A stretch of DNA of 64,000 nucleotides from a virus (IMGVR_UViG_3300033149_003379:4220-68219); one strand, 5' to 3'. Positions 3 through 30,344 are shown, numbered from the stretch's first letter. Translations and numbers: made by a program. Notes: generated from the sequence alone by a model not told the origin.

Positions 3-1286
3 GCTCCTATACTCGGTCTTGTCTATCTGTCTCTTGCTAATGACAAGACCTACTTTCACTCTATTTTCCAACGAGTTATTCGTACTCCTAATGATTTGAG
101 AGACTTCGTTCAAATAGTTCGAAGCGGTCAGATCAGAGGAATGGGTCGAACGGTTAAGGATGCTGTGAATGCCTTCCTTTCGACAAGAATGTCTGAGTAT
201 TGGGCTATCAAGTACGGGTCCAATTCTCAGAATCCGTCTCTTCGAGATATTTATAGGATGACTCGTCCTGTTTTGACTGGAAAGGCACAAGCCATCGCTA
301 GATATCTCGTAAAGGGAGAGTTTGATGTTTCTCAGTTGAGCCAAGTGTCATACTTTGAGGCCCTTAAGAGTGTTGAAACTGAGGACAATGCAGTGTATTG
401 CATAGAGAGAGGAGCACTTCCCTATGAGGTTGTGACGTCTCTTGCTCCTTCAACAAAGAAGGTATGGACTGCTCTTTTGTATCAAGCTCCATACATGAAT
501 CTATTGATGAACCTCAACAACTTCCATAAATATGGAGTCTTTGATGATCCGAAGAATGTCGACTATGCAGTCAAGTACTTGGTTGATAATGTTGAGAAGT
601 CGAAAATCTTGCCATTCAGGTTCTTCTCAGCCTATAAGGCGCTGAACGTAGACAACAATCGAATAATTGAGGCTGTCTCGGAAGCATTGGAGAGGTCATT
701 CGTCAATTTGCCTGACATTGAAGGAAATGTGCTGATAGCGAATGACATCTCTGGGTCTATGAATTGTGCAATGTCGAATCGAGGAACCACTACCTATGCA
801 GAGGTTGCAGGTATCTTTGCAGCGGCATTGTTCAAGAAGGCTGGAGACCACTCCAAGATAGTCTCGTTCAATACGCAAGCTCTTGGAAGAACTGTAAACC
901 GAATGACTCCAATGCTTGATATGGCTCGAATGATTTCAAGCGGAGGAGGAGGTACTGATCTTAGTGCTCCTCTACAGTTCATGATGAATAATCGTCACTT
1001 TCCTGTAGATGTAGGAATTTTCATTACTGACAGTGAGAGTTGGGCTTCGTACGTGTTTAAGCACAAGACTGACAAGAGCGTCATTGAGGAATACAGAAGG
1101 ACTGTTAATCCGAATTTCAAGGCGTTCTTCATTCAACTTGCGCCATACACGCATGCTATAGTACCTAATAACTATCCTGGATGTTACTACATCTATGGTT
1201 GGTCTGAGCAGATCCTTCAATACATCACTACGATCCTTAATGGCGGAGAGACACAAGTTTCTCAAGTAAGGAAGTTGGTGATATAA
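3..1286 (+). CDS. Ro60/Rsr TROVE-domain RNA-binding protein with C-terminal VWA domain (5' truncated by window edge)
   Basis: Frame open from position 3 (APILGLVYLS...RTPNDLRDF). Motifs PYMNLLMNLNNF and SKILPFRFFSAY; VWA MIDAS DISGSM...GGGTDL...ITDSE. Confidence 0.9.
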   Translation, partial: APILGLVYLSLANDKTYFHSIFQRVIRTPNDLRDFVQIVRSGQIRGMGRTVKDAVNAFLSTRMSEYWAIKYGSNSQNPSLRDIYRMTRPVLTGKAQAIARYLVKGEFDVSQLSQVSYFEALKSVETEDNAVYCIERGALPYEVVTSLAPSTKKVWTALLYQAPYMNLLMNLNNFHKYGVFDDPKNVDYAVKYLVDNVEKSKILPFRFFSAYKALNVDNNRIIEAVSEALERSFVNLPDIEGNVLIANDISGSMNCAMSNRGTTTYAEVAGIFAAALFKKAGDHSKIVSFNTQALGRTVNRMTPMLDMARMISSGGGGTDLSAPLQFMMNNRHFPVDVGIFITDSESWASYVFKHKTDKSVIEEYRRTVNPNFKAFFIQLAPYTHAIVPNNYPGCYYIYGWSEQILQYITTILNGGETQVSQVRKLVI

Positions 1287-1287
1287 T
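1279..1287 (+). promoter_or_regulatory. Extended -10 promoter (TGATATAAT) overlapping the Ro60 stop codon
   Basis: TG-n-TATAAT ends 8 nt before the first Y-RNA-like element. Confidence 0.55.
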
Positions 1288-1295
1288 TGGAGTGT

Positions 1296-1365
1296 ATGAG
1301 GTGTGTAGAGAGGTTACTTCGCTGTTTTGAAGACTGCACTAGGACCTTTCTCGTAACTTCCTCAT
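1296..1365 (+). ncRNA. Y RNA-like element 1
   Basis: ATGAGGTG..AGAGAGG-TTACTTCG-loop-CCTTTCT..AACTTCCTCAT; terminal and inner stems pair; directly downstream of Ro60. Confidence 0.7.
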
Positions 1366-1384
1366 GTAAACCTATTGTATTAGA

Positions 1385-1477
1385 TGAGGTGCTGATCGGG
1401 CGTACTTCGACATATTACTGAATAGGTGCAACTAACATAGAATCAACTACTTTAGCGCCTGGTCTCGAATTTCCTCA
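1385..1477 (+). ncRNA. Y RNA-like element 2
   Basis: TGAGGTG..GATCGGGCG-TACTTCG-long loop-CGCCTGGTC..AATTTCCTCA. Confidence 0.7.
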
Positions 1478-1499
1478 ACGTTCCTTAAAAGATGCTAAC

Positions 1500-1571
1500 C
1501 TGAGGTGAAGGTGGAGTTACTTCGTTATTTTGTTGATCGAAGAATTAGTACTTCACCGTCAGCTTCCTCAG
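1500..1571 (+). ncRNA. Y RNA-like element 3
   Basis: CTGAGGTG..GGTGGAGT-TACTTCG-loop-ACTTCACC..AGCTTCCTCAG. Confidence 0.7.
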
Positions 1572-1582
1572 AGTTACATAAA

Positions 1583-1650
1583 TGAGGTGAATAGTAGGGT
1601 TACTTCGTTTTCTTTGCTAAAAACGCCACGCCTTACTAATAACTTCCTCA
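1583..1650 (+). ncRNA. Y RNA-like element 4
   Basis: TGAGGTG..TAGTAGGGT-TACTTCG-loop-GCCTTACTA..AACTTCCTCA. Confidence 0.7.
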
Positions 1651-1670
1651 GTATCTAAAAGGAGGATGAT

Positions 1671-2027
1671 ATGACGAACAGTAAGTCTAGCCTTTCGATT
1701 GATTTGAGTATCTCTATGTTACTTGCTGCGATCGCGATGGTCGGAGCATACATAGAGTTTAGAACATTTCTACCTGTAGGAATCATTGCTCTCTATTGGT
1801 TGATTCTACAATTAGCTTCGATCGTGAATCTCCTTCCTGTTGCAGGTCCAATCTTGTTCTACTTCATTGGACATGAATGGGCTCTTCCATTTCTCCTATC
1901 ACAAACCGATATTCCGATGTCAGGATTCTGGGGACTGTCTCTCGTATTCTGGGGATTGTTCATTCTAGGAGTACTCTCTAACATTCTGATTATTCTCATC
2001 ATCATAGCTCTAGCTCGATTGAAATAG
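1671..2027 (+). CDS. Multi-pass membrane protein, unknown function
   Basis: AGGAGG RBS; several hydrophobic segments. Confidence 0.75.
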   Translation: MTNSKSSLSIDLSISMLLAAIAMVGAYIEFRTFLPVGIIALYWLILQLASIVNLLPVAGPILFYFIGHEWALPFLLSQTDIPMSGFWGLSLVFWGLFILGVLSNILIILIIIALARLK

Positions 2028-2054
2028 GAAGTTGTATTCAGAGCTTACCAGCAT

Positions 2055-2069
2055 AGTATAATTATGTTG
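2055..2069 (+). promoter_or_regulatory. Putative late promoter motif AGTATAATTATGTTG
   Basis: Identical 15-mer at 34498-34512 upstream of the scaffold/capsid genes; AGTATAATTA also at 46920. Confidence 0.55.
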
Positions 2070-2113
2070 GAGGAGTCATGAAAGGCAAGACCATCCTAAA
2101 TGACTAGAAAGAT

Positions 2114-2584
2114 GTGGTTATAGCGAATACACAAGTTAGAGCAGATTCAGGCAAGCTTTCATTAATCTCGGCGGTCTCCATTGGTGATCGCCTGTTTTCG
2201 TGTAATGGACCTAGACCTGTATCAAGAATCTTGAGGAGACATGTAGACGAGAAGATAATCGCCATACGTACACCCAGAGATGTGATATGGTGCACTAGGG
2301 ACACTCTTTTTGTCAAAGATGATAGAACTATCATACGTGCAAAGGACCTCAAGAAGGGTGATCTTTTACTGTCTCACATCGTACGAAGGAATGGAGACAT
2401 GGTGGTTATTCCAGTAGATTGGACCGATCCTTGGAGAAGCAAGGACGGCTGGCTTCAGAGATACACAGGAGAACAGGTCCTCTTTACGTTAGACAAGTGG
2501 TTTACTGGATTCATGTACTCTGTTGAACTCGAAGGCACCGACACGTTCTTTTGTAGGAGGTTGTGCATTAAGTGGGAGAACTAA
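2114..2584 (+). CDS. Free-standing Hint (intein/hedgehog-like) domain protein, degenerate
   Basis: VIANTQV..ISAVSIGD..CTRD..RAKDLKKGD..MYSVELEGTDTFF follows the Hint blocks; no N-terminal Cys and no terminal HN. Confidence 0.7.
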   Translation: MVIANTQVRADSGKLSLISAVSIGDRLFSCNGPRPVSRILRRHVDEKIIAIRTPRDVIWCTRDTLFVKDDRTIIRAKDLKKGDLLLSHIVRRNGDMVVIPVDWTDPWRSKDGWLQRYTGEQVLFTLDKWFTGFMYSVELEGTDTFFCRRLCIKWEN

Positions 2585-4407
2585 CAAAACTTCATGAGTT
2601 GATCGCTGAGCTGTCAGAACCTCAGAAGCTCGAGAAGTTCTACTCGAAGAAATACAATCTTGAATTGATTCCACTGAAACCCGGACAATTGCCTCCGAAG
2701 GGAGCTCAGGTCTTTACAGGAAGGAGAGGTGGTAAATACTACTACTTTCCTCGTGGTAAAAAGAAGGAGGAAGAAGAGACTGTATCTCAACCGCAAATTG
2801 AGGAGAAGCCTGTTGAGACTGATCCTATCAAGAAATACACAGATGGGTCAAAGGAGGCTCACGAAAGGCTATTCAAGGAACATTCCTACGATCTAACAGG
2901 TCTTGTTAAAGATACTAAATACGATCGTATTGAATGGGAGGCTATACGTGAGTATGCACAAACTCACAAGGATAATGGAACAGATAAGTTCTTAAAGGAA
3001 GCTATAGAGCATGCTCGCTATAAAAGATTTCTTGTTTGGTCGGCTGAATATGACAAAAATGTTGAGCTCGCAGTTGAATATATTAAAAAGGCTCGAGAAA
3101 AACATCCTGAGATTTCTCATCCTCATGAACGTGGAATAAAAGATTCTGCAATTAAGAATGATGATGGTGAATGGTGGCTTTATAATCCATTAGAAAATGT
3201 CTTTGCTGGACGAGGAGACTATACATCTCTAACTAAAGATGATTGGGTTCATACAGGACTCAACGATCACAGTCGTAAATTACATATAGATGTCGAAAAT
3301 CATACTATCACAGACTCTAAGGATTCAAAGGTTTATAAGTTTAAAGACCTTGAGGACCTCCAAGAGATACTGATTGGTAGTTTCGGATTTTCATATGATG
3401 ACAAAGACTCAATCAAAAGATCGTATAACTTTTTCTCTGAAATAGGAACTGACAAAGGAGACCCTCTTGAAAAGTTTTCTGAGGAGGAGACCACTGAATT
3501 TAAGAGACTAATAAGTCGCTTTGCACATGATGATTATGATGCATATCATATTGAAACTCGAACTCAAGATGAAATCTACAGGTTTTGTCAGTATTTAGCA
3601 TCTGTAGACAAAATTGACATGTTCACCTCTGCACCATCATATTTAGACGAGGAACACGCTTCAAAATTAATTGATTGGACAGTCGGTCAGGTAAAAAGAG
3701 CACAATCTTTAGGTATAGCTCATCCATGTCAGGCAGATCTCTTAGGAATATTAATGGACTCTGGAGCTACAGGTGATGTTTGTGCCAAAGCATTAGCTGA
3801 AAGCTACAAATTGTACAGTCATTCTCATGGAGCGAGACTACCGATGCCACCCGTAATCGAGGACCAACAAAACTTAGATGTAGCTAAACATCAGGTCATT
3901 GATAATTTCTTGATTGCTGGTGGAACTAGAGCGCATCAAGCTCTCAGTAGTGCAGTCAACAAAATCTTCAATGGTAAAACTGATAGAACTGTATTTTATT
4001 GGAGAGACTCAGAGACGAGGCATGCAGAACCAATACCTCCATTAATAACCTCTCCTGATAATCAAATCCTCGCAGTCACTAAGGATATATATCGTGAGAC
4101 TCAGGAGTATTTTAGAAACAAGAAGATAGATACAGTAACTGTATATCGAGGAGTCAATTCAGGCATTACCACGAATTCTCCGATTGAGAGTTGGACCGCC
4201 AGTTTAGATTGTGCTCGGCGTTTCAATGGAGGAAGTGGAGCAATCTTCAAGGTGACTGTACCGATCGATCGAATCTTTATGTCATACAAATCACAACGAT
4301 ACGATTGGTTACCTGAGGAAGACTTGGAAGGAAAAAAGGAATACACTCTGATAGGCATAAAGGATGGTAAATCATTATTTGATGAATTCCAGGTGGAAAA
4401 GGTATGA
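2572..4407 (+). CDS. GPRGG-type leader protein with C-terminal ADP-ribosyltransferase-like domain
   Basis: N-term LKPGQLPPKGAQVFTGRRGGKYY; C-term VYRG...ESWT...KKEY. Confidence 0.6.
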   Translation: MGELTKLHELIAELSEPQKLEKFYSKKYNLELIPLKPGQLPPKGAQVFTGRRGGKYYYFPRGKKKEEEETVSQPQIEEKPVETDPIKKYTDGSKEAHERLFKEHSYDLTGLVKDTKYDRIEWEAIREYAQTHKDNGTDKFLKEAIEHARYKRFLVWSAEYDKNVELAVEYIKKAREKHPEISHPHERGIKDSAIKNDDGEWWLYNPLENVFAGRGDYTSLTKDDWVHTGLNDHSRKLHIDVENHTITDSKDSKVYKFKDLEDLQEILIGSFGFSYDDKDSIKRSYNFFSEIGTDKGDPLEKFSEEETTEFKRLISRFAHDDYDAYHIETRTQDEIYRFCQYLASVDKIDMFTSAPSYLDEEHASKLIDWTVGQVKRAQSLGIAHPCQADLLGILMDSGATGDVCAKALAESYKLYSHSHGARLPMPPVIEDQQNLDVAKHQVIDNFLIAGGTRAHQALSSAVNKIFNGKTDRTVFYWRDSETRHAEPIPPLITSPDNQILAVTKDIYRETQEYFRNKKIDTVTVYRGVNSGITTNSPIESWTASLDCARRFNGGSGAIFKVTVPIDRIFMSYKSQRYDWLPEEDLEGKKEYTLIGIKDGKSLFDEFQVEKV

Positions 4408-6689
4408 AGGAAATTAAAGTTGGACATGTAAAGGTCTTAGTGCCAGAGAATCCGAAGGATGAACTGAGGATTGGCTCTATGAAGGATGTTGTTCCGACCT
4501 TTATGAATAATAAACGTAGGACTAGTGAGCTTATCAGAAAGGAACAAGCTACTCCGCCTCGTCCAGGTCTTGTCTTCGATAGAGTCAAACATCGTTGGAT
4601 TAGGCCTAAATATGGGAAGGAGAAATACGAGGTAAACCTTCCACAAGAAATAAAGGAGATGAATGAGTACCTCGATAGGTTGAAGCATCGAAAACCTCAA
4701 CTTAAGGAGCTCGGAGAAAAACTTGATGCTCAGCAGATATCAAAAATAAAGGACAACGTAGATGAATACTTAGGCCAGTATGAACGCTTTTTCGATGCAG
4801 AAACCTACAATAAGGTTAGAAGTATCAGCTATAGGTTAGTCAGTTCCATCAGTAGATTCACATCCAGATACACTCCAGATGCACTTCAGGACCTTGTTTT
4901 TAAGTCCATTGACTGTCTTATTTACTGTGAAGCAAGGTCATGGGAGAGACAACTATCTGATCATGGTATCAGACATATATGGAATGATATTGATACAGCC
5001 AATCGTATATTCGATGCGATATCCTCTAAGAGTCCTAAAAATCCTATAACTAACCGAGAGGTCATGATGGCGAACCTCATTCTCATCTTCCATGATATCG
5101 GATATACTGCAGGTCCTGTTAGAGAGTCTATTGCTCATACAAAGCAACACCAGATTATCAGTCGAAGATGGTTCGAATATGAGAAGGAATTCTTCAAGAA
5201 GTATTTTTCTAATGACGAACTCGACTTCATGGCTGATATCATTCAGAATCATGATACTACGGTAATTGACTGGGAGAATCACCGACTGCTGACTACGGTA
5301 AGTCTATCAGATAATTTATCCTTGTTCCATGAGGAGAAATTACCATCATTGTTTAGGTACGTGCCAGGATCGTTAGAAGTTCTGTTCGACTTGAAGGATG
5401 CTCTTGAAGCAGGAGATGAGAAAGCTGAAGATCGAGCTAGGGAGCTTCTGGATAAGAAGATTGATGAGTCCTATCTGCCTGAATACAGCAAAGCATGGCT
5501 CAAACAAGCTGCTAAGGGTATAAATCCGTATACTGTAAAGGTTACTATACCTATGCTGATCGGTCGGATCAGGCATTTCGATTGGGAAGACTCTGGATTG
5601 GTCGTCGATATTGATGAGAGCCCATTTGATACGAAGGTTGCTCACTTCTTCGATATGGGTCAAAGAAAATACCAGAAGTTCGCTGAGGATTATGGTATAG
5701 ACCTCAAAGATAACGATAATATCGAATTCGTTAAGGATGGAAAAAAGGTCCTGACATTGAAAATACGGAGAAGTCCTGAACCTACCAAGATACGAAAGAA
5801 GTCATATGATGTAATGAAGGTTATGTCTACTCCTCCTCGTCCTGGATTAGTGTTTGATAGAACTAGACGGAGATGGATCAGACCGAACAAGGATATTCCT
5901 AAACCTAAACAGGAGGAGCTCTCTAGTCCATCCAAGACTCTGCTCAATATGGGAGCTAAAGATATCTTCTTCGGTAAAAAAGAAAGAGTCAATAAAATTG
6001 TCAAAGAGTTGGAGCAAGAACTCAAGACTGCTAGAGACAACCTCATTGGAAAACAAGAGGCAGCTCAAGGAGAGATGCTTGTTGATGAATGGTGTGAAGG
6101 CTCTCTATTGAATATCTATGGTCTTAGGTTCCTAGCTGCAAAGATCTCGGAAGCAAACTTCTCTGAGGAAGAGATTTTGGAAGGAACCGAGACCTTTGGA
6201 TTGAATGATAAGAGTCTCGACCTACTGAGACAGCTAAGTCAAGCTAAGTTTCTCATTCCAGATGAGCATGGAAATTTGTCTACAGATCGGGCAGAAAATA
6301 TCTTGAAGCGAGAAAAGGCCTTTGCTGAAAAGAGAGCACGAGAGCTCTTTGGAGATAAGATTAAAGTTTATAGAGCTGTTTATGGAGAACAGGCCGAGCA
6401 GATATTAGAAGAGTTGGAGAAGAGCAAAACAGGAGAAGCCTCCTTTAGTACAATGCCGCTCGCATCGTATAGTCAAGACCGAGACGCTGCGGTAATATTT
6501 GCTCATAACAATTCAAAGGGAAAGACTTCTGTATTGATCGAACGAGAAATTGGAGCAGACGAGATTCAATTCGCATGGTTCTCAAATCCAGTGTTCTTGT
6601 ATCAATTTAAGGAACAGTTCGAGGTTACTATAGCTCCAAAGGAGAAGACAATAACACTTAGTAGAGATTCGGTGACTAAGTTATGGTAA
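4404..6689 (+). CDS. Two-module protein: PPRPG leader + HD hydrolase, second PPRPG leader + ADP-ribosyltransferase-like domain
   Basis: PPRPGLVFDR..RWIRP occurs twice; DHGIRH..FHDIGY..H..NHD..SD; VYRA..ASYS..EQFE. Confidence 0.65.
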   Translation: MKEIKVGHVKVLVPENPKDELRIGSMKDVVPTFMNNKRRTSELIRKEQATPPRPGLVFDRVKHRWIRPKYGKEKYEVNLPQEIKEMNEYLDRLKHRKPQLKELGEKLDAQQISKIKDNVDEYLGQYERFFDAETYNKVRSISYRLVSSISRFTSRYTPDALQDLVFKSIDCLIYCEARSWERQLSDHGIRHIWNDIDTANRIFDAISSKSPKNPITNREVMMANLILIFHDIGYTAGPVRESIAHTKQHQIISRRWFEYEKEFFKKYFSNDELDFMADIIQNHDTTVIDWENHRLLTTVSLSDNLSLFHEEKLPSLFRYVPGSLEVLFDLKDALEAGDEKAEDRARELLDKKIDESYLPEYSKAWLKQAAKGINPYTVKVTIPMLIGRIRHFDWEDSGLVVDIDESPFDTKVAHFFDMGQRKYQKFAEDYGIDLKDNDNIEFVKDGKKVLTLKIRRSPEPTKIRKKSYDVMKVMSTPPRPGLVFDRTRRRWIRPNKDIPKPKQEELSSPSKTLLNMGAKDIFFGKKERVNKIVKELEQELKTARDNLIGKQEAAQGEMLVDEWCEGSLLNIYGLRFLAAKISEANFSEEEILEGTETFGLNDKSLDLLRQLSQAKFLIPDEHGNLSTDRAENILKREKAFAEKRARELFGDKIKVYRAVYGEQAEQILEELEKSKTGEASFSTMPLASYSQDRDAAVIFAHNNSKGKTSVLIEREIGADEIQFAWFSNPVFLYQFKEQFEVTIAPKEKTITLSRDSVTKLW

Positions 6690-8428
6690 ATATCGATATA
6701 CAAGATTGGTTGGATAGGGTAAAGATCGACGAAGAGGTTGGTGAAACCTTGAAAAAGGAACAAGCTGTTCCTCCAAGGCCAGGTCTCGTCTTTGATAGGC
6801 AGAGACATCGATGGGTTCGTCCAGATAAGGAACGACCGAAGGACTTCAAGTCTCCTAAAGAAGATCTGACCTCTATTTCAATACCAGAGAACCTGAAGGG
6901 AGACAAACAAGCTGAAGAGCTTATTAGTGTTCTCAACGAGAAATTGAAGAAACTGAAGGAAGACGAAAGCTTTGCTCCATCATATCTCGACAATTACGAG
7001 TATGATTTACTAATGAATTACTCGGAGGAGTACGCAGAACAACTTGTTCCAATAATAGTTGATTACTACAAGAAGGCTCTCGATATAGGAGTCAAAAGTG
7101 CTAAAGATAAAGACAGGTTCGATAAGTTAACATTTGCGGCAAATAAGATTATTCACGCTCTCTATTATCGAACTAGAGACTTTCATACTGATTCGAAGGA
7201 GGTTCACGACTTACTAGAAACATGCTTAAAGAAACCTTATGAAATAAAGGGAATATTATCACCTCGAGAAGCGAATCGTCTTTTTGATTATGGTGCTGAG
7301 CCTCGTCTACTTAGAGAACATTTCAACTTATTCAGTAAATATGCGTCTTCAATAAAAGAATTTTCTTACTTATTCAAGATCAGAATTTCTGATGCTCTTT
7401 TAGAGAAGTTTAGTAAGAAAGTTGATTTTGTTATGAGTCACTTGAGCCAAGATGAGCTTGACGAGATAAGCTTAGAAAATATCATAGAGAGCTTAGCATA
7501 TAATTGTAAGTCTTCACAGCTTGGAACTGTAGAAGGTCTCGCACATAAAGTATCTGAGACTCTTCGTACAAAGTTCAATGATGAGGAACACAGTGAAAGA
7601 TATAATTCAATTTTCAGAGCTATTGAGCATCGAAAGACTCTTCTTAATAAGATCGGTCTTGATAACCTTAAGCGCTATAAGGAAACTGGAGAATTAAGAC
7701 TTCCATCAGGTAACGAATTCAGATCGAAGTTGGAAGAAATCGTAGACATGAGTGTAAAGGACCCTGGTGAAGATACCAAAGAGTTTGTTTCGGAAATTAT
7801 GGCTGAGCTTGGAATGAGGGATGTTCACGAACTATTGGTTCGAGAGTGGGAATCTTCTGCTAACTCTCTTGGAGGCAATGCTCTGTCAAAATACATAGCG
7901 GAGTTTTATGATGGTGAAGTAAAGTATCATGAGTTTAAAGGCCCAGAGGATGTTTTACATGCTGTAGAGCAGCTAGGAATGGTGGATTTTGGAGAAGAAA
8001 AACTTACCAAATATATCAAGGAGCACTATCATTTGACTCAAGAAATGCTGAAGTACACCTTTCCTCATACAAACACAATTACTTTGTATAGAGGAACCTC
8101 TACTTATGAAAGTAAAAATATCGATGTAATAAGAGAGGCTTGGAAAAAACGAATCAAGAGTGGAGACCAAATTCAAGTTGATTCAAACTCCGTCAGTAGC
8201 TGGACACTTGACAAAGAAGTTGCGCGAAAATTTGCCAATCAACAAGAAGTACGTGGCTTAGTTTTGAGAGCTGAGGTTCCATTGTCTTCGATATTTGGAT
8301 ACTTGGCATCATACTGTTTCAGAGGAAATGAACGAGAGTTTCTCGTCATAAAGAAACCGAAGAACAAATATTACATAGAAGATGCTTGGGCGTTCCATCA
8401 TACAGAGGAGGAACTCTATAATGAATAA
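6683..8428 (+). CDS. PPRPG leader protein with C-terminal ADP-ribosyltransferase-like domain
   Basis: KEQAVPPRPGLVFDRQRHRWVRP; TLYRG...SSWT...NEREF (R-S-ExE). Confidence 0.65.
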   Translation: MVNIDIQDWLDRVKIDEEVGETLKKEQAVPPRPGLVFDRQRHRWVRPDKERPKDFKSPKEDLTSISIPENLKGDKQAEELISVLNEKLKKLKEDESFAPSYLDNYEYDLLMNYSEEYAEQLVPIIVDYYKKALDIGVKSAKDKDRFDKLTFAANKIIHALYYRTRDFHTDSKEVHDLLETCLKKPYEIKGILSPREANRLFDYGAEPRLLREHFNLFSKYASSIKEFSYLFKIRISDALLEKFSKKVDFVMSHLSQDELDEISLENIIESLAYNCKSSQLGTVEGLAHKVSETLRTKFNDEEHSERYNSIFRAIEHRKTLLNKIGLDNLKRYKETGELRLPSGNEFRSKLEEIVDMSVKDPGEDTKEFVSEIMAELGMRDVHELLVREWESSANSLGGNALSKYIAEFYDGEVKYHEFKGPEDVLHAVEQLGMVDFGEEKLTKYIKEHYHLTQEMLKYTFPHTNTITLYRGTSTYESKNIDVIREAWKKRIKSGDQIQVDSNSVSSWTLDKEVARKFANQQEVRGLVLRAEVPLSSIFGYLASYCFRGNEREFLVIKKPKNKYYIEDAWAFHHTEEELYNE

Positions 8429-10145
8429 AAATCTTGTTATAGAGATTGATTTTAATAAAAAGGATGCTGACTGGCTGAAGACTCTTAGAGAAAAGACTGA
8501 AGAACCTATTCAGAAAGAACAAGCGGTTCCTCCGAGACCGGGACTTGTGTTTGACAGACAACGACACAGATGGGTTCGACCTGTAAAGGAAGGTCCGAAG
8601 GAACCTAAGTCTTCTAATATGAATAAGCTTCGTATCTCTATACCTGATGACATAAAAGTAGATGAAGAAGTGAAGAATGTTGTCAAAGACTTCGAAGAAT
8701 CCTTAGAGAAAATGCAGAATGATGATGACTTTGTTCCTTCATATTCTGGTAGAGGCCTATTGGAGAGTTACTTCGGCGAATCTGTTAATAAGTTCATACC
8801 ATTACTTATTGATTATTACACGAAGGCTCTCGATGTATGTGTGAAGAATGAAAAACATACTGTTAGATTTCAGTATTTCGCAGCTTGGGCACAGAGCCTT
8901 GTCTCAATTTTAACTTCTGATGAATGCAAGAAGTATTCTAAGGAAATAAGAGCTTTGATAGAAACATGCTTGAGAAAAAAGTTTGTAGTAAAGGACATAG
9001 AGCCTAATTTTTATAGCCTAAACGAACTTTACACTTCTGGCCCTGTCATACTCAGGAGGTATTTCGGTCTCTTCTGCAAGTATGCATCATCACTAAGTGA
9101 ACTTGAGGCCGTTCTTAAAGTAGAAGTCTCAGACGAGCTTTTAGAGAAGTTTCGTAAGAAATTATATTCTTGGCTCGAACACCCAGATAAAATCTCACCA
9201 GCCGTACACGCCAGATTAGAAAACTTAATGTCCTTCTTAGCAGTTTATTGCAAACCTTCACAACTTGAAACCATAAAAGAACTTGAACATAAAGAATATA
9301 TGACTCTGAGTTCTTATGCTGATCCAGAGGTCAGCTCGCTACTAGAGAGAAAGATTAAGGAAAGACAAGACCGTATAAACAAAGTAGGTCTCAACAATAT
9401 CAAGCATTTCGCAGAAACTGGTGAATTGAAATTACCGATTGGCAATGAATTCAGAAGCATGCTAGAAGCCGTTCCTGATATGAGCGTAAAGGACCCTGGT
9501 AAGGAGACTAAGAAATTAGTGAGAGAAATCATGAGTGAACTTGGTCTTGCAAAGGTTCATTCAAAGCTAGTCTTAGATTGGGAAAAGTCAGCAAATTCGA
9601 CAGGAGGAAACGTCCTATCAACATATATTGCGAAATTGTATGACGAGAAGGTGAAGTATCATAAACTGAGAGATGAACTTAGTGTTTCGTCTGAGGTCCG
9701 AGAAGCAGAAGATAGGTTCGGAGAAGACAAACTTTTGGAATACACCAAAAAACACTATGAGTTGACACAACAGATGTTGAAGTACTCATTTCCTCATAAG
9801 AATACAATTACCTTGTATAGAGGAACCTCCGTTGAAGAAGGTAAGGGCAAGAAGTTTAAAAGTGACATCACAGAAGGGAGAGTGAAGTTAGGTGACTCGG
9901 TCGAAGTTGATGCTAATTCAGTTAGTAGTTGGACGCTCGACAAAAAGGTTGCTCGTAAATTTGCGAAAAGTAGAGCTACTCAAGGAGTAGTATTGAAGGC
10001 AGAAGTTCCGCTGTCTTCTGTATTTGGATATTTAGCTTCATATTGTTATAACGGAAATGAACGTGAATTCCTCGTAATAAAGAGACCAGAGAATACCTAT
10101 TACTTAGAAGATACTTGGGTACATTACGGAGATGACAATGACTAA
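8421..10145 (+). CDS. Tandem paralog of 6683..8428, ADP-ribosyltransferase-like
   Basis: GAGGAGG RBS before ATG 8421; same leader and TLYRG/SSWT/EREF motifs; long shared blocks such as DMSVKDPG and NSVSSWTLDK. Confidence 0.65.
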   Translation: MNKNLVIEIDFNKKDADWLKTLREKTEEPIQKEQAVPPRPGLVFDRQRHRWVRPVKEGPKEPKSSNMNKLRISIPDDIKVDEEVKNVVKDFEESLEKMQNDDDFVPSYSGRGLLESYFGESVNKFIPLLIDYYTKALDVCVKNEKHTVRFQYFAAWAQSLVSILTSDECKKYSKEIRALIETCLRKKFVVKDIEPNFYSLNELYTSGPVILRRYFGLFCKYASSLSELEAVLKVEVSDELLEKFRKKLYSWLEHPDKISPAVHARLENLMSFLAVYCKPSQLETIKELEHKEYMTLSSYADPEVSSLLERKIKERQDRINKVGLNNIKHFAETGELKLPIGNEFRSMLEAVPDMSVKDPGKETKKLVREIMSELGLAKVHSKLVLDWEKSANSTGGNVLSTYIAKLYDEKVKYHKLRDELSVSSEVREAEDRFGEDKLLEYTKKHYELTQQMLKYSFPHKNTITLYRGTSVEEGKGKKFKSDITEGRVKLGDSVEVDANSVSSWTLDKKVARKFAKSRATQGVVLKAEVPLSSVFGYLASYCYNGNEREFLVIKRPENTYYLEDTWVHYGDDND

Positions 10146-11067
10146 GAAATATGTCATAGAGATAGACTTCGATGCAGATGATGTGGATTGGTTGAAGCAG
10201 GTCAGAGAGGACACTCCTGAACCTGAGGAGGACCTTGATTCTGAAGATCTGATTAAGGACCTTGACGACTACGCCCTTCAGGAGATTATGGGTCATAAAT
10301 TTGCCATAATGGATAACGGAGGTACCAAGCAGAAGCCAGTCAAGCTGAACCATCTCGCTCCAGGAGAGGAGCCTCCAAAGGGTGCTCATTTGTATGTTGG
10401 ACCTAGAGGAGGACGTTACTATTACTACACAGGTGATAGTAGCATCACAGATGATAAAAAGAGGGCCCCAGATGCACATCCTGGTAGGCCAGAGGGCACT
10501 CGTATCGCATATTCCTATACCTTTCATAGGAACGACGATGTCAAAAATAACGACATAACGACATGGGTAGAACAGCTGAAGAAGATATCTGGCTATGAGG
10601 GCCTGACTCCGAAGGAGAAGGAGGCAATCGAAAAGGCAAAACATTCCCTACATCTCTTGAGGGCAATCAATAAGGAAGGCTCTAATGAGGACCACAATGT
10701 AATGACTATTAGAAATCCAAAGAGCGGAGAGCTCTATGGTGCTATGATGTGGACTCGTGTTCCTGAGGAGCTCTCAATACGATATAATATACCTAGATCG
10801 ATCGTGATAGAAGATTTGTGTTCATCTCCGAATGTAGTCGTAAATAGAACTAGAAAGGGTGTAGCTACAAGGCTCATGTATGAGCTCTTTAAAAATTATT
10901 TCCTTACAGATCCGAAACTTGAGGAGGTTTGCTTGTCTCCATACGAATCCGCAGTACCCTTTTATCAAAGGATCGGATTTGAAGGAGACCCTAATTATGA
11001 GGATATGACTATAACACGAAGGGATGCACAGAGATTTGTTGAACAATACGAAGCAGAGAGAATGTAA
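10132..11067 (+). CDS. GPRGG-type leader protein with C-terminal GNAT acetyltransferase
   Basis: LAPGEEPPKGAHLYVGPRGGRYY; acetyl-CoA motif RKGVATRL; AVPFYQRIGF. Confidence 0.75.
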   Translation: MTMTKKYVIEIDFDADDVDWLKQVREDTPEPEEDLDSEDLIKDLDDYALQEIMGHKFAIMDNGGTKQKPVKLNHLAPGEEPPKGAHLYVGPRGGRYYYYTGDSSITDDKKRAPDAHPGRPEGTRIAYSYTFHRNDDVKNNDITTWVEQLKKISGYEGLTPKEKEAIEKAKHSLHLLRAINKEGSNEDHNVMTIRNPKSGELYGAMMWTRVPEELSIRYNIPRSIVIEDLCSSPNVVVNRTRKGVATRLMYELFKNYFLTDPKLEEVCLSPYESAVPFYQRIGFEGDPNYEDMTITRRDAQRFVEQYEAERM

Positions 11068-12611
11068 TGGCAGTATATTCGAAGAAATTAGGAGCATGGT
11101 TAGAGCGTCTTGCTCCAGGAGAGAGTCCTCCTGAAGGTAAAAAGGAGGTTCGAGGTCCAAAAGGCGGACGCTACTACGTAATCGGTAAGGAACCAGAAGG
11201 TAAAAAGCCGACTAGAGGCCAGGAAGGCGGCATCTCTATAGAGGACCTTCTTGGTGATACTGAAGGTCTTCATAAGGATATCCTCGACGGCCTGCAGAAG
11301 ATCGCTGCTGGTCGTAATCTCACTCCTAATCAAATCTCTCGATTCGAAGATCGTGTTGTCGATCAAGTGGATCGATCTGTTACTGATAGGATCGTTAAAA
11401 CTCTAATTGAGCTGTGGAAGAAAAACAAGGCAAAGAACGGACAAACCTCTCTACAATTAGCTAGAGATTTGTCTCAAATCGCCTCTCCGCATCTAGTTGA
11501 GGAGATGATTTCTATCGGAATGGGAGGAGACGTTCTCGGAGTTAGTGATAGCTTCGTAAATAAGATTTTAGTGCAAGGTCCGCCAAAATATCAACGTAGC
11601 GTCAGTATTGTAAGAAGAATACATACTGATGAACAGTTACAAGATTACCTAAACGCCGAAGTTTTAGATACGAAGAATCTCATACGTCTATTGCCGAATC
11701 TGACAGAATCTCAACTCAAGATGGTTGAGGAATACCTAGAAGAGCACCCATTAGAAGATTCACTATATACCTCTGACAAGAAGTATTGGGATAAGCAAAT
11801 TGGAAATATGTTGTCCCTAAAGAAGGAAGTCTATGAGAACGATCGAGAATTGCTCTCATCTATAAAAGAGTACGGAGCTGATGCCCTAACTCCAGAGATG
11901 ATTTCTAATAAACTGAAGAGGTCACTTCGAAACGTAGCTAAGGAGAGCATTAAGAATCCATCTATATATTCATTACAACTGACACAGGAAATCTTCAACG
12001 AGCTAGGTTTAGGTGATATTCATAACATAATGAAGAATAGCTGGGAGGAATCAGCAAATACCTTGTTCTCTCTAGCACTACGACACAGAGCAGGAGAAAT
12101 GTACGGAAATACGAACGAGCACTCCTTAGGAGAATGGATACGTATGGTGCATGACACAGACAAGTTCTGTGAGAACATGGCTTCAATCATTAGTGATCGT
12201 TTCGAAGACGATAGATTCACAAAGTACGTTGCTACTCTGAGAAATCTGAGCCGAAGGATGCTCGATATCTCCTTCCCTGATAGTGATACTATAAAACTCT
12301 GGAGAGGAACATCAATATATGAGGTAGACTATCCGAAGGATAAGAAAGGATTTCCTCTCAGGACTAAGGAAGAGGATGTGGATATTAAATCGAATCCTCT
12401 CAGTAGTTGGACCTTGAGACGCTCAGTAGCGTTTGACTTCGCTTGGGAGCAAGGAAATCAGGTTGGAATGGTCCTGTCTACAGAGGTAGATAAGGATGAC
12501 ATCTTCTCGTACTCGGCATTGTACGCTAATGCAGGAAATGAAAGAGAATTTCTTTTGTTGAATAAAGGTCCAAGAAGGGTAAAGGCTAAAAAGGTTCTGG
12601 ATGTGAGATAA
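11067..12611 (+). CDS. GPRGG-type leader protein with ADP-ribosyltransferase-like domain
   Basis: LAPGESPPEGKKEVRGPKGGRYY; LWRG...SSWT...NEREF; related to the 6683/8421 C-termini. Confidence 0.65.
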   Translation: MAVYSKKLGAWLERLAPGESPPEGKKEVRGPKGGRYYVIGKEPEGKKPTRGQEGGISIEDLLGDTEGLHKDILDGLQKIAAGRNLTPNQISRFEDRVVDQVDRSVTDRIVKTLIELWKKNKAKNGQTSLQLARDLSQIASPHLVEEMISIGMGGDVLGVSDSFVNKILVQGPPKYQRSVSIVRRIHTDEQLQDYLNAEVLDTKNLIRLLPNLTESQLKMVEEYLEEHPLEDSLYTSDKKYWDKQIGNMLSLKKEVYENDRELLSSIKEYGADALTPEMISNKLKRSLRNVAKESIKNPSIYSLQLTQEIFNELGLGDIHNIMKNSWEESANTLFSLALRHRAGEMYGNTNEHSLGEWIRMVHDTDKFCENMASIISDRFEDDRFTKYVATLRNLSRRMLDISFPDSDTIKLWRGTSIYEVDYPKDKKGFPLRTKEEDVDIKSNPLSSWTLRRSVAFDFAWEQGNQVGMVLSTEVDKDDIFSYSALYANAGNEREFLLLNKGPRRVKAKKVLDVR

Positions 12612-14005
12612 TGAAGGAAATATTAGTAGACGACAACTACAATGCTGACTGGATAAAGAGGGTCAAACATAAGAGGCGCCAATTGAGAGAGGCAGCCGAA
12701 CTTGAGGAGTCCGTCCATAAGTCATCCTGTCCTGAAGGGCTCGAAATTGAGCTCCAACAGTTGAGTCCTGGTCAAAGCCTGTTTGAGGACGCACTAGTTC
12801 TCTCTAGTGTTAAAGGAGATCGAATTGGCGTAATCAGTAAGGGTAGAGTCTATTTGAAGCCATCTGAGGCTCCTTCGAAGGGAGCAAGCGTAAAGGTTGG
12901 CCCTAGAGGAGGCAGATACTACGAGACTGGAGACTCAGGACAAGTCTCTGAAGAGCCTAAGAAAATAACTTATACACCGTCTCAAGTTTCAGCTTATTCT
13001 ACTGATTACTCTACTAGGGAGGACTTCAGAAAACTCTACGAAGACTGTGATAAACTTCTTAATAAATACGATGAATGGCTCAACAATAAGGATGTGCCTA
13101 AAGACACAAAGGATGTCGTCAATGATATGAAGGAGAATCTAATTGCTATCAAGAAAACATTAGATGATTCTCCTTATGATACGAGAGTATTTTCGGTAAA
13201 GGATTCAAAAGGTAGACCACTCAACATCGCAGCTATTCGTCATGATCGGAAGGAAGACATGATAAGAGTCATGCCTACGTCAGTAGCTCCTGAAGCACTC
13301 AGTGGGTACTCAGACAACTTCGATAGGATTGTTCTTTATCATGCTACCTTGATGTCAAACGAAAGAGTCGTAGAAACTCTTGAGAAAAATGGAAGATATT
13401 TAAATGGTCCAGATAGAATTCTTGTGGTTAGAAATGCTTTAGAGGATGAACTAGGTATAAAACCGAAGATATATGAACAATCTGTCGAGAAGAGAGCGGA
13501 ATCTAGAAGGTACGCTAAAAGTGTTCTTGCGCGTAATGTATATGATGAAAAGCTTGCAGAGCCAGCACTTCAAGGAATAATGAAGAGTCCTCCAGAGCAT
13601 CTGAAGAACTTGAAGAGACTCATAATATCAACGAAGGCTCTTTGGGCTGTTGCTCCAAATGCAGCTGGAGCCTTTGATAGTGAAACAAACTTTCTTTATT
13701 ACGGAGACCCTCATTCAGACCCTTCAGTTGCATCCCATGAAGTCGGTCATCTTGTATACTCCACCTTATTGACACCAGAACAAAAGGAATGGATTCGTAA
13801 TAGATATTCTCTCTTGAGCAATCAAGTTTGGTACTTATTAACAGTTCCTCAATCGCTCTTTATCACTCCATATTCAGCGGTAGTTAATGATAATGAATGG
13901 TTCGCAGAGTGTTATAGAGCATACTTGAATAAACCAGAGACTCTATGGACTGTAGACCCTACAGTATACAAATTCTTAGAGAAGGAGGTCTTCCATAATG
14001 ACTAA
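12611..14005 (+). CDS. GPRGG-type leader protein with C-terminal zincin metallopeptidase (anthrax LF/MPTase-like)
   Basis: YLKPSEAPSKGASVKVGPRGGRYY; HEVGH; YS....NEWFAE. Confidence 0.7.
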   Translation: MKEILVDDNYNADWIKRVKHKRRQLREAAELEESVHKSSCPEGLEIELQQLSPGQSLFEDALVLSSVKGDRIGVISKGRVYLKPSEAPSKGASVKVGPRGGRYYETGDSGQVSEEPKKITYTPSQVSAYSTDYSTREDFRKLYEDCDKLLNKYDEWLNNKDVPKDTKDVVNDMKENLIAIKKTLDDSPYDTRVFSVKDSKGRPLNIAAIRHDRKEDMIRVMPTSVAPEALSGYSDNFDRIVLYHATLMSNERVVETLEKNGRYLNGPDRILVVRNALEDELGIKPKIYEQSVEKRAESRRYAKSVLARNVYDEKLAEPALQGIMKSPPEHLKNLKRLIISTKALWAVAPNAAGAFDSETNFLYYGDPHSDPSVASHEVGHLVYSTLLTPEQKEWIRNRYSLLSNQVWYLLTVPQSLFITPYSAVVNDNEWFAECYRAYLNKPETLWTVDPTVYKFLEKEVFHND

Positions 14006-15224
14006 TAAATACAAAGATTGGAAATCTGAAATTGACGGGATAAAGGTCGATCCGCCTCTCGACAAAATACCCGATGTCGAGGACCTCATAGAGAAGCTCA
14101 AAGGACTGCGAAAGTCTAGCAATGAGATAGTTGCTCTCTCGGACATAAAGGGAAATGTTGTGAAAATCGATCCTGAGGTCGAGCCAAATGATACGGAGAG
14201 ACTCAAAGGTAAGCTCTTGAAGGATAATGAGGAGAAGGCAAAGACATCGTCTTCTATAGACGAAATTGAAGAGCTAGAAGAGGAGGAGCCTCCGTTTGTT
14301 GGAGAGGTCACCCCAGATGAACTAGAGGTGAAATCCGAGGACGATATCCTTGACGAAATAGCCCAATTCATCGTGGACAATCCAGACTACACCGAGGATG
14401 AGCTGAGGGAGCTAGCAGATAGGGTCTCTATTGATTTCGATGACTTGAAAGAGATGCTGTCTCCAGAGCGCCTTGAGAAGGCTAGAAGATACGGTCATCC
14501 CAGGACTGAAGAGGAGCGTAGGGAACGACATGCTCGTCTTCATCCAGGAGAGGCCCTGCCTGAACGAGGAACAGGAAGACTTGCCTTGACTGGTAGTGAT
14601 GGATCAGTCATCAAGTGGTTTGAGAATCAACGAGAGATGAACGACTACATGAGGCGCTTCACCCAGTACACCCATGCAGTCCCGTTCGGTCCAGGAGGGC
14701 TGGTATGGATGATTGAATCCATTAGTATAGATAAGAATGATACCGACAGCCTCTCCAAGCTAGAATCAGTCGACTCGTATGATGATTGGAAAACGGTAAT
14801 CAGCACGATTAAGAAGGTCCAAAATCCTTCAGTAGACCTACTGTTCTCCAATACTACAACCCTACGTCTAGGCCTAGGAGATGCCCTAGATCTGCAAAGG
14901 GGCAACAAGCTAGTAGGGATCCAGGATGAAAAATTCGACCTAATGGAGGTTGAACTACTGGAGAAGGGATTTGAGGATTTGGTGTCTGAATTTAGGGGTC
15001 CTGGTGCAATCGTGATCGGCAGATCCCTCTCCGGATCTGGCACCGACGACCCGAACCTAGTGAGGATCAGCTTTGCTGCTGACTATGGGAGATACGAGGT
15101 CTATGGTATTGGTAAATCTCTAATGGAGTTGGATATTTATGGCACCAAGATCATGAAACGAGGAATTTACTCCATAGCTAGTGGAGATCCGAGTAATCTG
15201 AGCTACTCCGCTGGTCTGGTATAG
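13998..15224 (+). CDS. Acidic hypothetical protein with internal basic module (RYGHPRTEEERRERH)
   Basis: AGGAGG RBS; last gene of the coupled operon. Confidence 0.7.
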   Translation: MTNKYKDWKSEIDGIKVDPPLDKIPDVEDLIEKLKGLRKSSNEIVALSDIKGNVVKIDPEVEPNDTERLKGKLLKDNEEKAKTSSSIDEIEELEEEEPPFVGEVTPDELEVKSEDDILDEIAQFIVDNPDYTEDELRELADRVSIDFDDLKEMLSPERLEKARRYGHPRTEEERRERHARLHPGEALPERGTGRLALTGSDGSVIKWFENQREMNDYMRRFTQYTHAVPFGPGGLVWMIESISIDKNDTDSLSKLESVDSYDDWKTVISTIKKVQNPSVDLLFSNTTTLRLGLGDALDLQRGNKLVGIQDEKFDLMEVELLEKGFEDLVSEFRGPGAIVIGRSLSGSGTDDPNLVRISFAADYGRYEVYGIGKSLMELDIYGTKIMKRGIYSIASGDPSNLSYSAGLV

Positions 15225-15309
15225 GACACTCCTGGAGCTATCAGAATGCACATCTGGGGCCCTCTACAGGTAGTAGATGTAGGTAGCATCATCTAGGGAG
15301 ATTCCTGCA

Positions 15310-15680
15310 CCTAGTCCTGCTAGTGGCTGCTAGTGACTAAAGTGGCTGCGAAGGACTACAGAGGACTACCAGAAGCTGCGAAGGACTAATAGAGACTGAT
15401 TAGACTACCGTCGACTATTTGGAACCATTAGCATCTATTAGGTACTACTAATGACTACTCGAGACCACCATTTACCGATAGAAATAAAACGGTATTTCGA
15501 GGCCACTGAAGATTATGGTTGTTAATCAGGACCATGCGGACCATAGAAGAATTGAGTAATATTAGACACTACTAATGACTATAACCTCTATTTTAGTCAC
15601 CTGGACCCTCAGTAGTCGATATAGTCACTATTGAGGACCAGCAGTGACTACCTGAACTCCTGCCGGCTATTTGAGACTAC
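15310..15680. repeat. Degenerate GACTA short-repeat tract in a non-coding gap
   Basis: Ten GACTA copies on +, several on -; GCTGCGAAGGACTA x2; CTACTAATGACTA x2. Confidence 0.6.
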
Positions 15681-15831
15681 CACCTGCTTCAGTCACCAGG
15701 ACCCATGGCATTTTCATATATCAGGAGAAGGTCTTTTCAGTCGTCTACTAGCATCGGAACAGAGACAGCTCCTGGAGGGACCCTGACACGAATACAAATT
15801 TGTACCTGGATGTGCAGGTTGGGCAGAAGGG

Positions 15832-16263
15832 TTATTCGATGGGAAATTCGATTATTTGCTGTATATAGCTTCTGAGCCAGGCCACCGGTTCATTGTGTAG
15901 GTGTTTCTTTAGTACATCAGTCGAACCAAGGATCTCTAGTGACTGTACTACTGCATCTCGTACCTCTACATCCGGATGGTTCAGGGCTGAAGCTATAATG
16001 TCAATATAGTCCTCCTGATCTATCCGTCCCAAACACTTGATGATTGATGCAACAACCGAAGCATTAGTCTCGTAGGATATGAGATTATGAAGCCAATGTC
16101 TCATCTCCAATGGATGCTCAAAGAGGAGTAACCTAAGATGTTCCTCTGCTGGATGCTGGCAGCCGTCCTCAACAGGTTCGGTGTCTATGGCTAAGAGTAC
16201 CTCCAAAAGGCGATCATCAAATGTTCGGTCACTCCTTCTAGTATGTACGACATGTTGATTCAA
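15832..16263 (-). CDS. HEAT-repeat protein
   Basis: ALNHPDVEVRDAVVQSLEILG...HNEPVAWLR. Confidence 0.7.
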   Translation of the reverse strand: MNQHVVHTRRSDRTFDDRLLEVLLAIDTEPVEDGCQHPAEEHLRLLLFEHPLEMRHWLHNLISYETNASVVASIIKCLGRIDQEDYIDIIASALNHPDVEVRDAVVQSLEILGSTDVLKKHLHNEPVAWLRSYIQQIIEFPIE

Positions 16264-29364: not shown

Positions 29365-29395
29365 TTTCTTGAAGGAGGACAATAAAGGAGGTATC

Positions 29396-30337: not shown

Positions 30338-30344
30338 AGGAGGT

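Follow-up and report, generated by a model that had tools for sequence, protein, structure and literature searches.

Proteins packaged in the virion and delivered with the genome have so far been described in a few model phages or inferred from MuF and portal fusions. The internal proteins of phage T4 are diverse, and the available part of one account gives only a capsid targeting sequence (CTS) as common to them (PMC3012670). The Dar proteins of phage P1 (DarA, Hdf, DarB, DdrA, DdrB and Ulx) are large anti-restriction enzymes carried in the head, according to the accessible portions of two papers (PMC12810830, PMC5512222). Elsewhere, head packaging has been inferred from neighborhood with head genes and from fusions to MuF, portal and capsid protease domains (Iyer et al. 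2017, PMC5512222; Iyer et al. 2022, PMC9503650; both as partly available). Here we describe a cluster of eight overlapping plus-strand genes, at 2572-15224 of a 64,000-nucleotide stretch of viral DNA (IMGVR_UViG_3300033149_003379:4220-68219; the window), which comprises bases 4220-68219 of a linear virus record of 68,219 bases rated 82% complete. Seven of the eight products carry one of two short peptides, tag A or tag B, ahead of their enzyme modules. Judged by sequence comparison, the cluster is probably (about 0.65) an unbundled version of a phage-type polyvalent set, that is, the capsid-internal, injected effectors of a probably archaeal tailed virus; the enzymes are probably packed in the virion because the same tags elsewhere sit on capsid-interior proteins.

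The proposed likeness to T4 lies in diverse anti-host and anti-defense proteins that share one short N-terminal peptide for prohead entry (PMC3012670, in the part available), in an ADP-ribosyltransferase (ART), Alt, among the packaged proteins, and in processing by the prohead protease (for Alt, PMC5512222, in part). Unlike the CTS, the tags measure about 18-38 residues, have no sequence relationship to anything named, also occur internally and repeatedly, and come in at least four interchangeable types; and unlike T4, the viruses that bear them are siphovirus-like, probably archaeal, with an S78 protease and an SU10-type major capsid protein (MCP). With P1 the locus would share head-borne enzymes, and in P1 DarA is trimmed by the prohead protease and there is a capsid-lining adaptor; P1 differs in its dedicated shell-binding adaptors, with no short tag common to the cargo described in the available text (PMC12810830, PMC5512222), and no DarA or Hdf homologue was seen here. 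Polyvalent proteins have the same repertoire of ART, GNAT, zincin metallopeptidase, HD, NUDIX, ParB and HNH domains (PMC5512222, PMC9503650, in the parts available), and many tag B proteins are themselves phage-type polyvalent proteins. The window set differs in being split into single-warhead genes, with two enzyme modules in the product of the gene at 4404 only and one in each of the other six tagged products; the cluster works like a polyvalent protein, but most of its genes do not encode polyvalent proteins. Recurring short tags are not mentioned in the available part of PMC5512222, and a literal search for the tag motif strings in part of the literature, without supplements, returned nothing relevant, which is weak evidence that the tags have not been described before. 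The new element is the tags, which are short, interchangeable, widespread and without a reported Pfam model; packaged effectors and polyvalent proteins were already known.

A sequence-only reading had claimed that the window holds eight translationally coupled large genes, that seven of them carry one of two short modules and that several products begin with an acidic DW(L/I) leader, and all three claims stand. The open reading frames (ORFs) start at positions from 2572 to 13998, and each overlaps the next, by 4, 7, 47 (8 with start 8421), 14, 1, 1 and 8 nt in turn; the range is 1-14 nt if gene 4 begins at 8421, a start favored because the N-terminus then matches that of the 10132 product (products are named here by their start position). 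Regular expressions and a local hidden Markov model (HMM) find four copies of tag A and four of tag B in the seven genes. The exact tag A core, PPRPGLVFDR..[HR]RW[IV]RP, begins at residues 51 and 477 of the 4404 product (residues 51-68, 4554-4607; residues 477-494, 5832-5885, between the two enzyme modules), at residue 30 of the 6683 product (6770-6823) and at residue 50 of the 8382 product (8529-8582), and 16 of 50 columns of the tag A alignment are invariant. Tag B lies at residue 50 of the 2572 product (residues 24-65, 2641-2766), 90 of the 10132 product (10324-10446), 30 of the 11067 product (11079-11201) and 97 of the 12611 product (12833-12946), with local HMM E-values of 3.6e-16, 1.8e-17, 3.7e-13 and 3e-21, which are partly circular because the profile was built from these four copies and 12 outside copies. 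A six-frame scan of the 64 kb finds both motifs confined to the cluster; the single other PRPG match, on the minus strand, does not extend to the full motif.

An acidic leader ending in DW[LI][KD] opens four products, those of 6683, 8421, 10132 and 12611 (6683-6740, 8421-8490, 10132-10200 and 12611-12670). A short hydrophobic-acidic leader ending in (D/N)W(L/I/V)(K/R) also stands at the extreme N-terminus, directly before tag B, in at least eight proteins of other viruses (P0003, P0035, P0013, P0079, P0128, P0146, P0136 and P0066), and lies inside the fused polyproteins P0001 and P0007, upstream of an internal tag. This leader could be a true loading signal or a propeptide.

Behind the tags, the cluster encodes five ART-like domains of the R-S-E type, an HD/phosphodiesterase (PDE)-fold module, a GNAT and an anthrax lethal factor (LF)-like zincin. 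Gene 1 (2572-4407, 611 aa) joins tag B to a helical middle region and a C-terminal ART-like domain (3769-4404; R526, S540, E590). Gene 2 (4404-6689, 761 aa) reads tag A, HD/PDE-fold module (residues 81-467, 4644-5804), tag A, ART-like domain (6321-6686; R657, S688, E740). Genes 3 (6683-8428, 581 aa) and 4 (8421-10145, 574 aa; 587 aa from 8382) are paralogues with 49% identity, each with a DW leader, tag A and a DRAT-like ART (7988-8350, after a helical region, and 9558-10079). Gene 5 (10132-11067, 311 aa) follows its DW leader and tag B with a GNAT-like domain (motif A region 10852-10983), gene 6 (11067-12611, 514 aa) has tag B, a helical region and an ART (12054-12608) related to those of genes 3 and 4, and gene 7 (12611-14005, 464 aa) has a DW leader, tag B and the zincin (13598-14002). 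Gene 8 (13998-15224, 408 aa), the last of the coupled genes, is tagless: it has no significant tag match (best local HMM E 3), no Pfam or PHROG family and no usable model in the protein atlas. None of the eight cluster proteins has a PHROG family, tblastn with the 6683 product found nothing among 50,697 phage records, and a related-locus search with the 11067 product gave 10 pattern matches, none of them a relative.

The proposed domain list (five ARTs, HD, GNAT and zincin) holds, with a certainty that is graded across Pfam, motifs and models. The Pfam DRAT model (PF07357) matches the 6683 and 8382 products at 29.9 and 27.0 bits, above its gathering score of 25, and over its C-terminal 300 residues the 11067 product shares 30-32% identity with the ARTs of genes 3 and 4 (BLASTP E 1.7e-33 and 3.3e-33). 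Related ARTs do stand behind either tag, as had been claimed (6683/8421 versus 11067, about 30% identity, E about 1e-33). The C-termini of the 2572 and 4404 products match the other cluster ARTs weakly by BLAST (E 5.7e-4 and 0.009), and DRAT alone gives E 0.21 for the former and no match for the latter; a local iterative search of a small database links both to the 6683 and 8382 products at E 1e-36. The catalytic R, S and E are invariant in all five window ART domains, and in 16 of 16 sequences once relatives are added. In an AlphaFold2 (AF2) model of the 2572 C-terminus (predicted local distance difference test, pLDDT, 73.1; predicted template modeling score, pTM, 0.72), all 50 matches listed by VIA belong to the ART superfamily, with a modest best Z of 6.6 over 72-78 aligned residues; ExoS scores Z 6.0 over 130 residues and ART2.2 Z 6.0 over 136. 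Foldseek finds nothing for this model at E<=1e-3, and its weak top rows are ART-like. The strands and helices of the gene 2 ART are modeled at pLDDT about 78-92. PDB sequence searches with the 4404 product, the 6683 product and an HD-family profile gave nothing useful, and the best match of a five-ART profile is a Listeria ART at E 0.79.

The HD/PDE-fold assignment comes from motifs and a model. SDHGIRH (residues 185-191), FHDIGY (229-234), QNHD (281-284) and SDN (302-304) supply the metal-motif residues H187, H191, H230-D231, H283 and D303, each invariant or at least 90% conserved among 10 sequences. In the model (pLDDT 76.9), VIA aligns residues 81-467 with cyclic-nucleotide PDEs, PPX/GppA, YhaM and the SdeC PDE at Z 10.3-11.7, in a range (below 13) that can be generic for helical folds; the top Foldseek rows are a SidE-family PDE, PPX, PDE and HD-GYP at E 0.03-0.2, and the Pfam HD models do not match the 4404 product even at E<=5. 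The best of these rows are the SidE-family PDEs SdeD and DupA (E 0.03-0.07), which are not better than the other HD/PDE matches. The HD/PDE module and ART occur together, in that order, in all full-length relatives (P0065, P0167-P0170, L031:7667-12334). In SidE effectors, the PDE acts on the ADP-ribose mark laid by the adjoining ART. By analogy, the two modules of gene 2 may act in sequence on one target, in phosphoribosyl marking or in reversal of ADP-ribosylation.

For the 10132 product, Pfam Acetyltransf_10 falls short of its cutoff of 23.6 with 22.2 bits, and the same residues are matched more weakly by three other GNAT models; its L031 homologue (phmmer E 5e-7) scores 25.6 bits, above the cutoff. 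The zincin of the 12611 product carries HEVGH (residues 376-380, 13736-13750) and EWFAE (429-433, 13895-13909), both invariant in 10 of 10 aligned relatives. Pfam ATLF (PF07737) gives 15.3 bits against a cutoff of 27.4 (E 0.017), and a profile of the family finds catalytic-domain chains of anthrax lethal factor at E 2.9e-4 to 3.6e-3 with both motifs aligned. The polyvalent-specific Pfam models (ART-PolyVal, MPTase-PolyVal, LPD) match none of the window proteins.

Tag B is widespread as a module. A search of 1.84 billion proteins with a 16-copy profile recovered 646 representatives at E<=1e-3 and 101 at E<=1e-10, and this survey of fused domains, which had been suggested as a check, turned up many enzyme families together with head-morphogenesis domains. 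A detailed set of 163 proteins, 159 of them from outside the window, holds 270 copies: one in 77 proteins, two in 68, three in 15 and four in 3. The tag spans about 35 residues with the consensus LeKaRVYLkPGEeAPeGv.Vq.GPRGGrYYEt, best conserved at K3, Y7, P15, G17, G23, G26, G27, Y/F29 and Y30, and no Pfam model is reported over it in the 159 outside proteins at thresholds of E<=0.01 or E<=0.001. Among these 159, 23 carry a head-morphogenesis domain (Phage_portal in 12, Peptidase_S78 in 9, Phage_Mu_F in 5, three of which also have portal); Pfam's own cutoffs are reached by four portal, six S78 and two Mu_F matches. The cargo comprises ART-type domains (14), TopoIB (12), DUF5661 (6), SAM lyase (5), DUF192 (5), a PI3/PI4-kinase-like region (5), GNAT (3) and ATLF zincin (2), along with NUDIX, PolyA_pol, RelA/SpoT, Zeta_toxin, HNH, ParB_N, methyltransferase and other domains. 

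Two of these cargoes deserve separate mention. TopoIB is as frequent a tagged cargo as ART (tag B proteins P0036, P0048, P0050, P0056, P0058, P0059, P0063, P0073, P0091, P0109, P0112 and P0113) and is also found behind tag A-like copies (L049) and tag D (L038:4092-5963). DUF192 (COG1430) stands at the N-terminus of five tagged polyproteins (P0063, P0075, P0089, P0112 and P0113), at the site otherwise held by the prohead protease S78 or the portal.

The tags are interchangeable, since HD+ART orthologues carry A, B, C or D at the same two positions. When the 4404 product is aligned with nine relatives, the sites before the HD module and before the ART are seen to hold different tags: tag A at both sites in the window; a variant, A' (PPRPGLEWKPETHRWIRP), in P0168 and P0170; tag B in P0065, P0169, P0053 and P0106; tag C, EGLVPKKVxVxxxGKxYxxTxWVRP, in P0167, L031 and the second site of P0168-P0170; and tag D, GGPGSGNFGHxGRPGxVGGS, in P0171 and P0172. 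The module shuffling proposed earlier is supported both by this swapping at fixed positions and by the same kinds of warhead behind different tags, with ART, LF-like zincin, TopoIB, SAM lyase, GNAT, NUDIX and HD recurring behind the four tag types. 

Tag D occurs in 11 copies in L038, in six adjacent genes beside MuF, where it precedes ATLF zincin, TopoIB and the HD module. The copies at L038:2656-16166 (also in L039 and L033) are near-identical, KGGPGSGNFGH[AS]GRPGQVGGS; each N-terminus has a copy about 23 residues in, another stands between modules (ATLF zincin, TopoIB, HD module, DUF3626), and the adjoining MuF gene holds an intein. A tblastn search of phages with the tag D stretch gave no match, for which low-complexity masking is a possible cause. 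Tag A was found by a word-index search in the window's own proteins only, and by a strict DNA pattern at five viral loci (L046-L050). L046 and L047, and L050 in part, encode portal (E 2.4e-25) followed by tag A and a C-terminal domain, L048 joins tag A to an HExxH-bearing C-terminus, and L049 has tag A-like copies before TopoIB. Tag A is thus rare but not private, given these five outside loci, and keeps the same company as tag B.

The placement of tag B within proteins speaks both to a loading role and to a second account, in which the proteins are likewise capsid-internal and the tags are docking or cleavage modules for the S78-type prohead protease. The enzyme would cut polyproteins into modules and remove N-terminal leaders, and loading would depend, for instance, on the acidic DW leader or on fusion to portal, protease or MuF. 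Tags do sit at module boundaries (270 in 163 proteins), upstream of 44 of 47 Pfam-recognized enzyme domains and within 250 aa in 35 cases. Portal, S78 and DUF192 domains are N-terminal to all tags in 19 of 21 proteins; the tags stand behind S78 in seven of nine S78 fusions and behind portal in all 12 portal fusions, where an address would be redundant. Two tags of one protein resemble each other more than tags from different proteins do (mean identity 0.56 versus 0.45, p 7e-21), as the sites of one virus-specific enzyme would be, the conserved leader precedes tag B in the at least eight outside proteins named above, and internal proteins of T4 and P1 are processed by the prohead protease, according to the parts available of PMC3012670, PMC12810830 and PMC5512222. 

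Other features of the tags fit processing poorly. The tag begins within the first 15 residues in 15 of 159 proteins and the protein ends with it in 7 of 159, and cutting there frees nothing; among single-tag proteins, it lies inside the first 120 residues in 47 of 73. Some 30 conserved residues far exceed a typical cleavage site, and the window virus has two unrelated tags, yet its first protease-like gene is similar (E 3e-24) to that of L031, which uses tag C. A purely inter-module cleavage role is disfavored because tags persist at the extreme N-terminus of single-module proteins, and we regard protease docking as the tags' role as unlikely.

Gene order in other viruses places tagged genes among head genes. 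The only named viruses with tag B are Haloarcula siphoviruses, which also hold the capsid protein nearest to that of the window. HVTV-1 has the order terminase, portal, gp113 (weak tag), gp114 ('head assembly'), gp115 ('zeta toxin', tag at the N-terminus), gp116 (two tags), protease, capsid protein. The tags of a metagenomic virus fall in a single stretch of its genome. L012 has terminase, then portal with two tags, then tag-ART-tag-SAM lyase; L014, a complete virus with terminal repeats, has terminase, portal, a DNA ligase with a C-terminal tag, S78 protease and MCP; and giant tagged proteins adjoin or are fused with S78 in L010 and L011. The L014 ligase (L014:7681-10314), between portal and protease, is ATP-dependent and intein-bearing, and its C-terminal tag is tag B. 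L031 reads terminase, portal, a DUF5661 protein and a 1555-aa polyprotein that contains NUDIX and an HD+ART unit; next come genes homologous to 10132, 2572 and 6683 of the window, and then an S78 protease that resembles the 31869-33011 product. Because these homologues lie there, the window cluster is the counterpart of the portal-to-prohead-protease segment, which is probably the usual coding place of internal head proteins, by a line of reasoning also used in PMC5512222 and PMC9503650. 

The window's own layout invites another explanation, an unpackaged early operon for host takeover, whose tags bind a cytoplasmic hub (clamp, polymerase or host protein) and whose head-gene fusions are unrelated reuse of a sticky motif. 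The cluster adjoins RNA and nucleotide-metabolism genes a long way from the capsid genes, clamps typically have ligase and TopoIB among their clients, and the ART of HVTV-1 and HCTV-5 is listed under 'metabolic genes', packaging going unmentioned in the available part of the source (PMC8651126). On the other side are the head-morphogenesis domains in 23 of 159 tag B proteins, a portal domain ahead of tag A too, and the homologous clusters between portal and prohead protease in L031, L012, L014 and HVTV-1. A strict tag B DNA pattern, run against one genome each of 185,579 prokaryote species, also found no true copy, its single match being a chance occurrence in a 50-aa frame. Such an operon appears highly improbable.

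The composition of tag B raises the further idea that the tags are nucleic-acid-binding peptides of the RGG or AT-hook type, which would tether enzymes to the packaged genome, so that they exit the capsid along with it, or aid DNA enzymes in the cell. The marine-type tag B is basic and carries GPRGGRYY; its cargo includes TopoIB (12 of 159), DNA ligase (L014), ParB_N and HNH; and the DarA-Hdf surfaces of P1 face DNA (PMC12810830, in the part available). However, halophile-type copies are strongly acidic: they keep the core of hydrophobic residues, Pro, Gly and Tyr and have lost nearly all basic residues except the arginine of RGG, so charge-based DNA binding is disfavored. Conservation is highest at K3, Y7, P15, G17, G23, G26, G27, Y29 and Y30 rather than at other charged positions, and tags A, C and D differ greatly in composition, yet occupy the same positions. 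We give this idea very little credence.

The favored reading is that a short portable peptide, tags A and B here and C and D in other lineages, would stand before each enzyme module to mark proteins of the procapsid interior. The effectors would be loaded into the procapsid and stay there through binding of the tag to a partner in the capsid interior (shell, scaffold or portal). With or without trimming by the S78-type prohead protease, they would then pass into the host together with the DNA, and may there ADP-ribosylate, acetylate, cleave or hydrolyze host or defense targets. The tags may act in loading or anchoring, in protease docking or processing, or in DNA tethering; several unrelated tags at the same positions count for loading or anchoring. 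In the 4404 model, the tag A copies are short, low-confidence beta-hairpins between disordered linkers, with mean pLDDT of about 45-66 in blocks of 10 residues and of about 47-66 for copy 1 by itself; the low confidence counts against the reading, and the hairpins at the same time suit a peptide that folds on a partner.

Several further results weigh against the favored reading. TopoIB and DNA ligase, which are frequent cargo, are DNA enzymes and would also fit a DNA- or replisome-directed motif. No tags were found in 16 MCP-related loci, up to 10 kb on each side of the MCP, and none of three related records, which are fragmentary (16-44% complete), has tag B. A profile-profile comparison of tags A and B shows no similarity (probability 0.1%), which speaks against the two as divergent homologues; the only link runs through tag C (shared PGLV and RW[VI]RP), as judged by eye. 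The earlier proposal of a virion-internal, injected cocktail is upheld in part: the portal, S78 and MuF fusions and the portal-protease placement in L031 support it, but neither the window nor the 4.2 kb upstream, in a record 82% complete, contains a recognizable portal, terminase or MuF gene. The cluster ends at 15224 and the first protease-like gene starts at 31869; a distance of 16.6 kb, with minus-strand genes, tRNAs and nucleotide-metabolism genes in between, separates it from the genes for protease and capsid. Metagenomes were scanned with the DNA polymerase to reach the part of the genome that the record lacks; of the 10 pattern matches, none was a relative.

The window virus is probably archaeal, on distant similarity only, because the capsid protein of the HVTV-1 family falls in an archaeal-virus clade; that clade is mostly marine in the available part of the source (PMC8651126).

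Encapsulins offer a cellular parallel. In these compartments, cargo-loading peptides, N-terminal, C-terminal or repeated, are attached to enzymes of unrelated kinds and bind an HK97-fold shell on its luminal side. Portal, DNA and ejection are absent there, and the peptides, of about 10 residues, have another consensus. The likeness is in short peptides on unrelated enzymes, and binding of a tag to a capsid protein is here a candidate only. A complex prediction that combined capsid protein and tag B alignments scored 0.00 in two runs, without controls and with the partner's own fold uncertain, and counts neither for nor against such binding. More tentatively, then, tags A-D might form a family of portable cargo-loading peptides for HK97-fold virus capsids, with one or two types kept in each lineage to dock on that lineage's own partner inside the capsid, as a viral counterpart of encapsulin targeting peptides and the T4 CTS. 

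Other features of the window lie around the cluster. A small ORF (2114-2584, plus strand, 156 aa) overlaps the start of gene 1 by 13 nt; its membership in the system is uncertain, it matches no Pfam or PHROG family, and by eye it resembles a degenerate free-standing Hint/mini-intein domain. Just upstream of the cluster, 3-1286 (complete gene L002:3868-5505) encodes a Ro60/TROVE and vWA protein (Pfam vWA_Ro60 E 5e-13, TROVE E 1e-9; PHROG 'RNA-binding protein' E 2.5e-28), and no Y-RNA-like family was found at Rfam gathering scores. Rfam returned three tRNAs and nothing else, and the numbers of promoters and terminators predicted in 1200-16000 lie within chance expectation (27 versus 30.2 and 13 versus 9.2). 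As had been noted, no immunity genes are interspersed in the cluster; the sole immunity-like match in the window, distant from the cluster, is the 222-aa product of 25499-26167, which weakly resembles Imm-5 immunity proteins (E 2.9e-5, 24.4 bits; cutoff 25) and also matches DUF7666.

Upstream of the capsid gene lie two different protease-like genes, at 31869-33011 (S78-like by PHROG and in its resemblance to the proteases of L031 and L014) and at 33426-34484 (PHROG 20754 'protease', E 1.7e-55, no Pfam family). A candidate scaffold gene is at 34643-35347. ThyX, an amidoligase followed by a glutamine amidotransferase, a UDG-family protein and a thymidylate-synthase-like protein (21660-22235, 29369-31499, 59537-62083) suggest base hypermodification of the viral DNA.

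The novelty of the cluster is a sequence-recognizable syntax, a short tag before each warhead. If the tags load or anchor proteins, the list of proteins that a virus injects would be obtainable without culture, and cultivable test systems would be at hand in the Haloarcula siphoviruses HVTV-1 and HCTV-1. The particles of viruses that tag TopoIB or ligase may, moreover, contain DNA-handling enzymes. If the tags are loading peptides, the whole injected proteome of a large, mostly uncultivated and partly archaeal group of viruses would be readable from sequence, and an added stretch of about 35 residues could direct any protein into such capsids. Should they instead be docking sites for the protease, they would be the substrate code of S78-type prohead proteases. 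Either way, the virus would spend 12.6 of 68 kb of coding capacity on manipulation of its host in the first minutes of infection.

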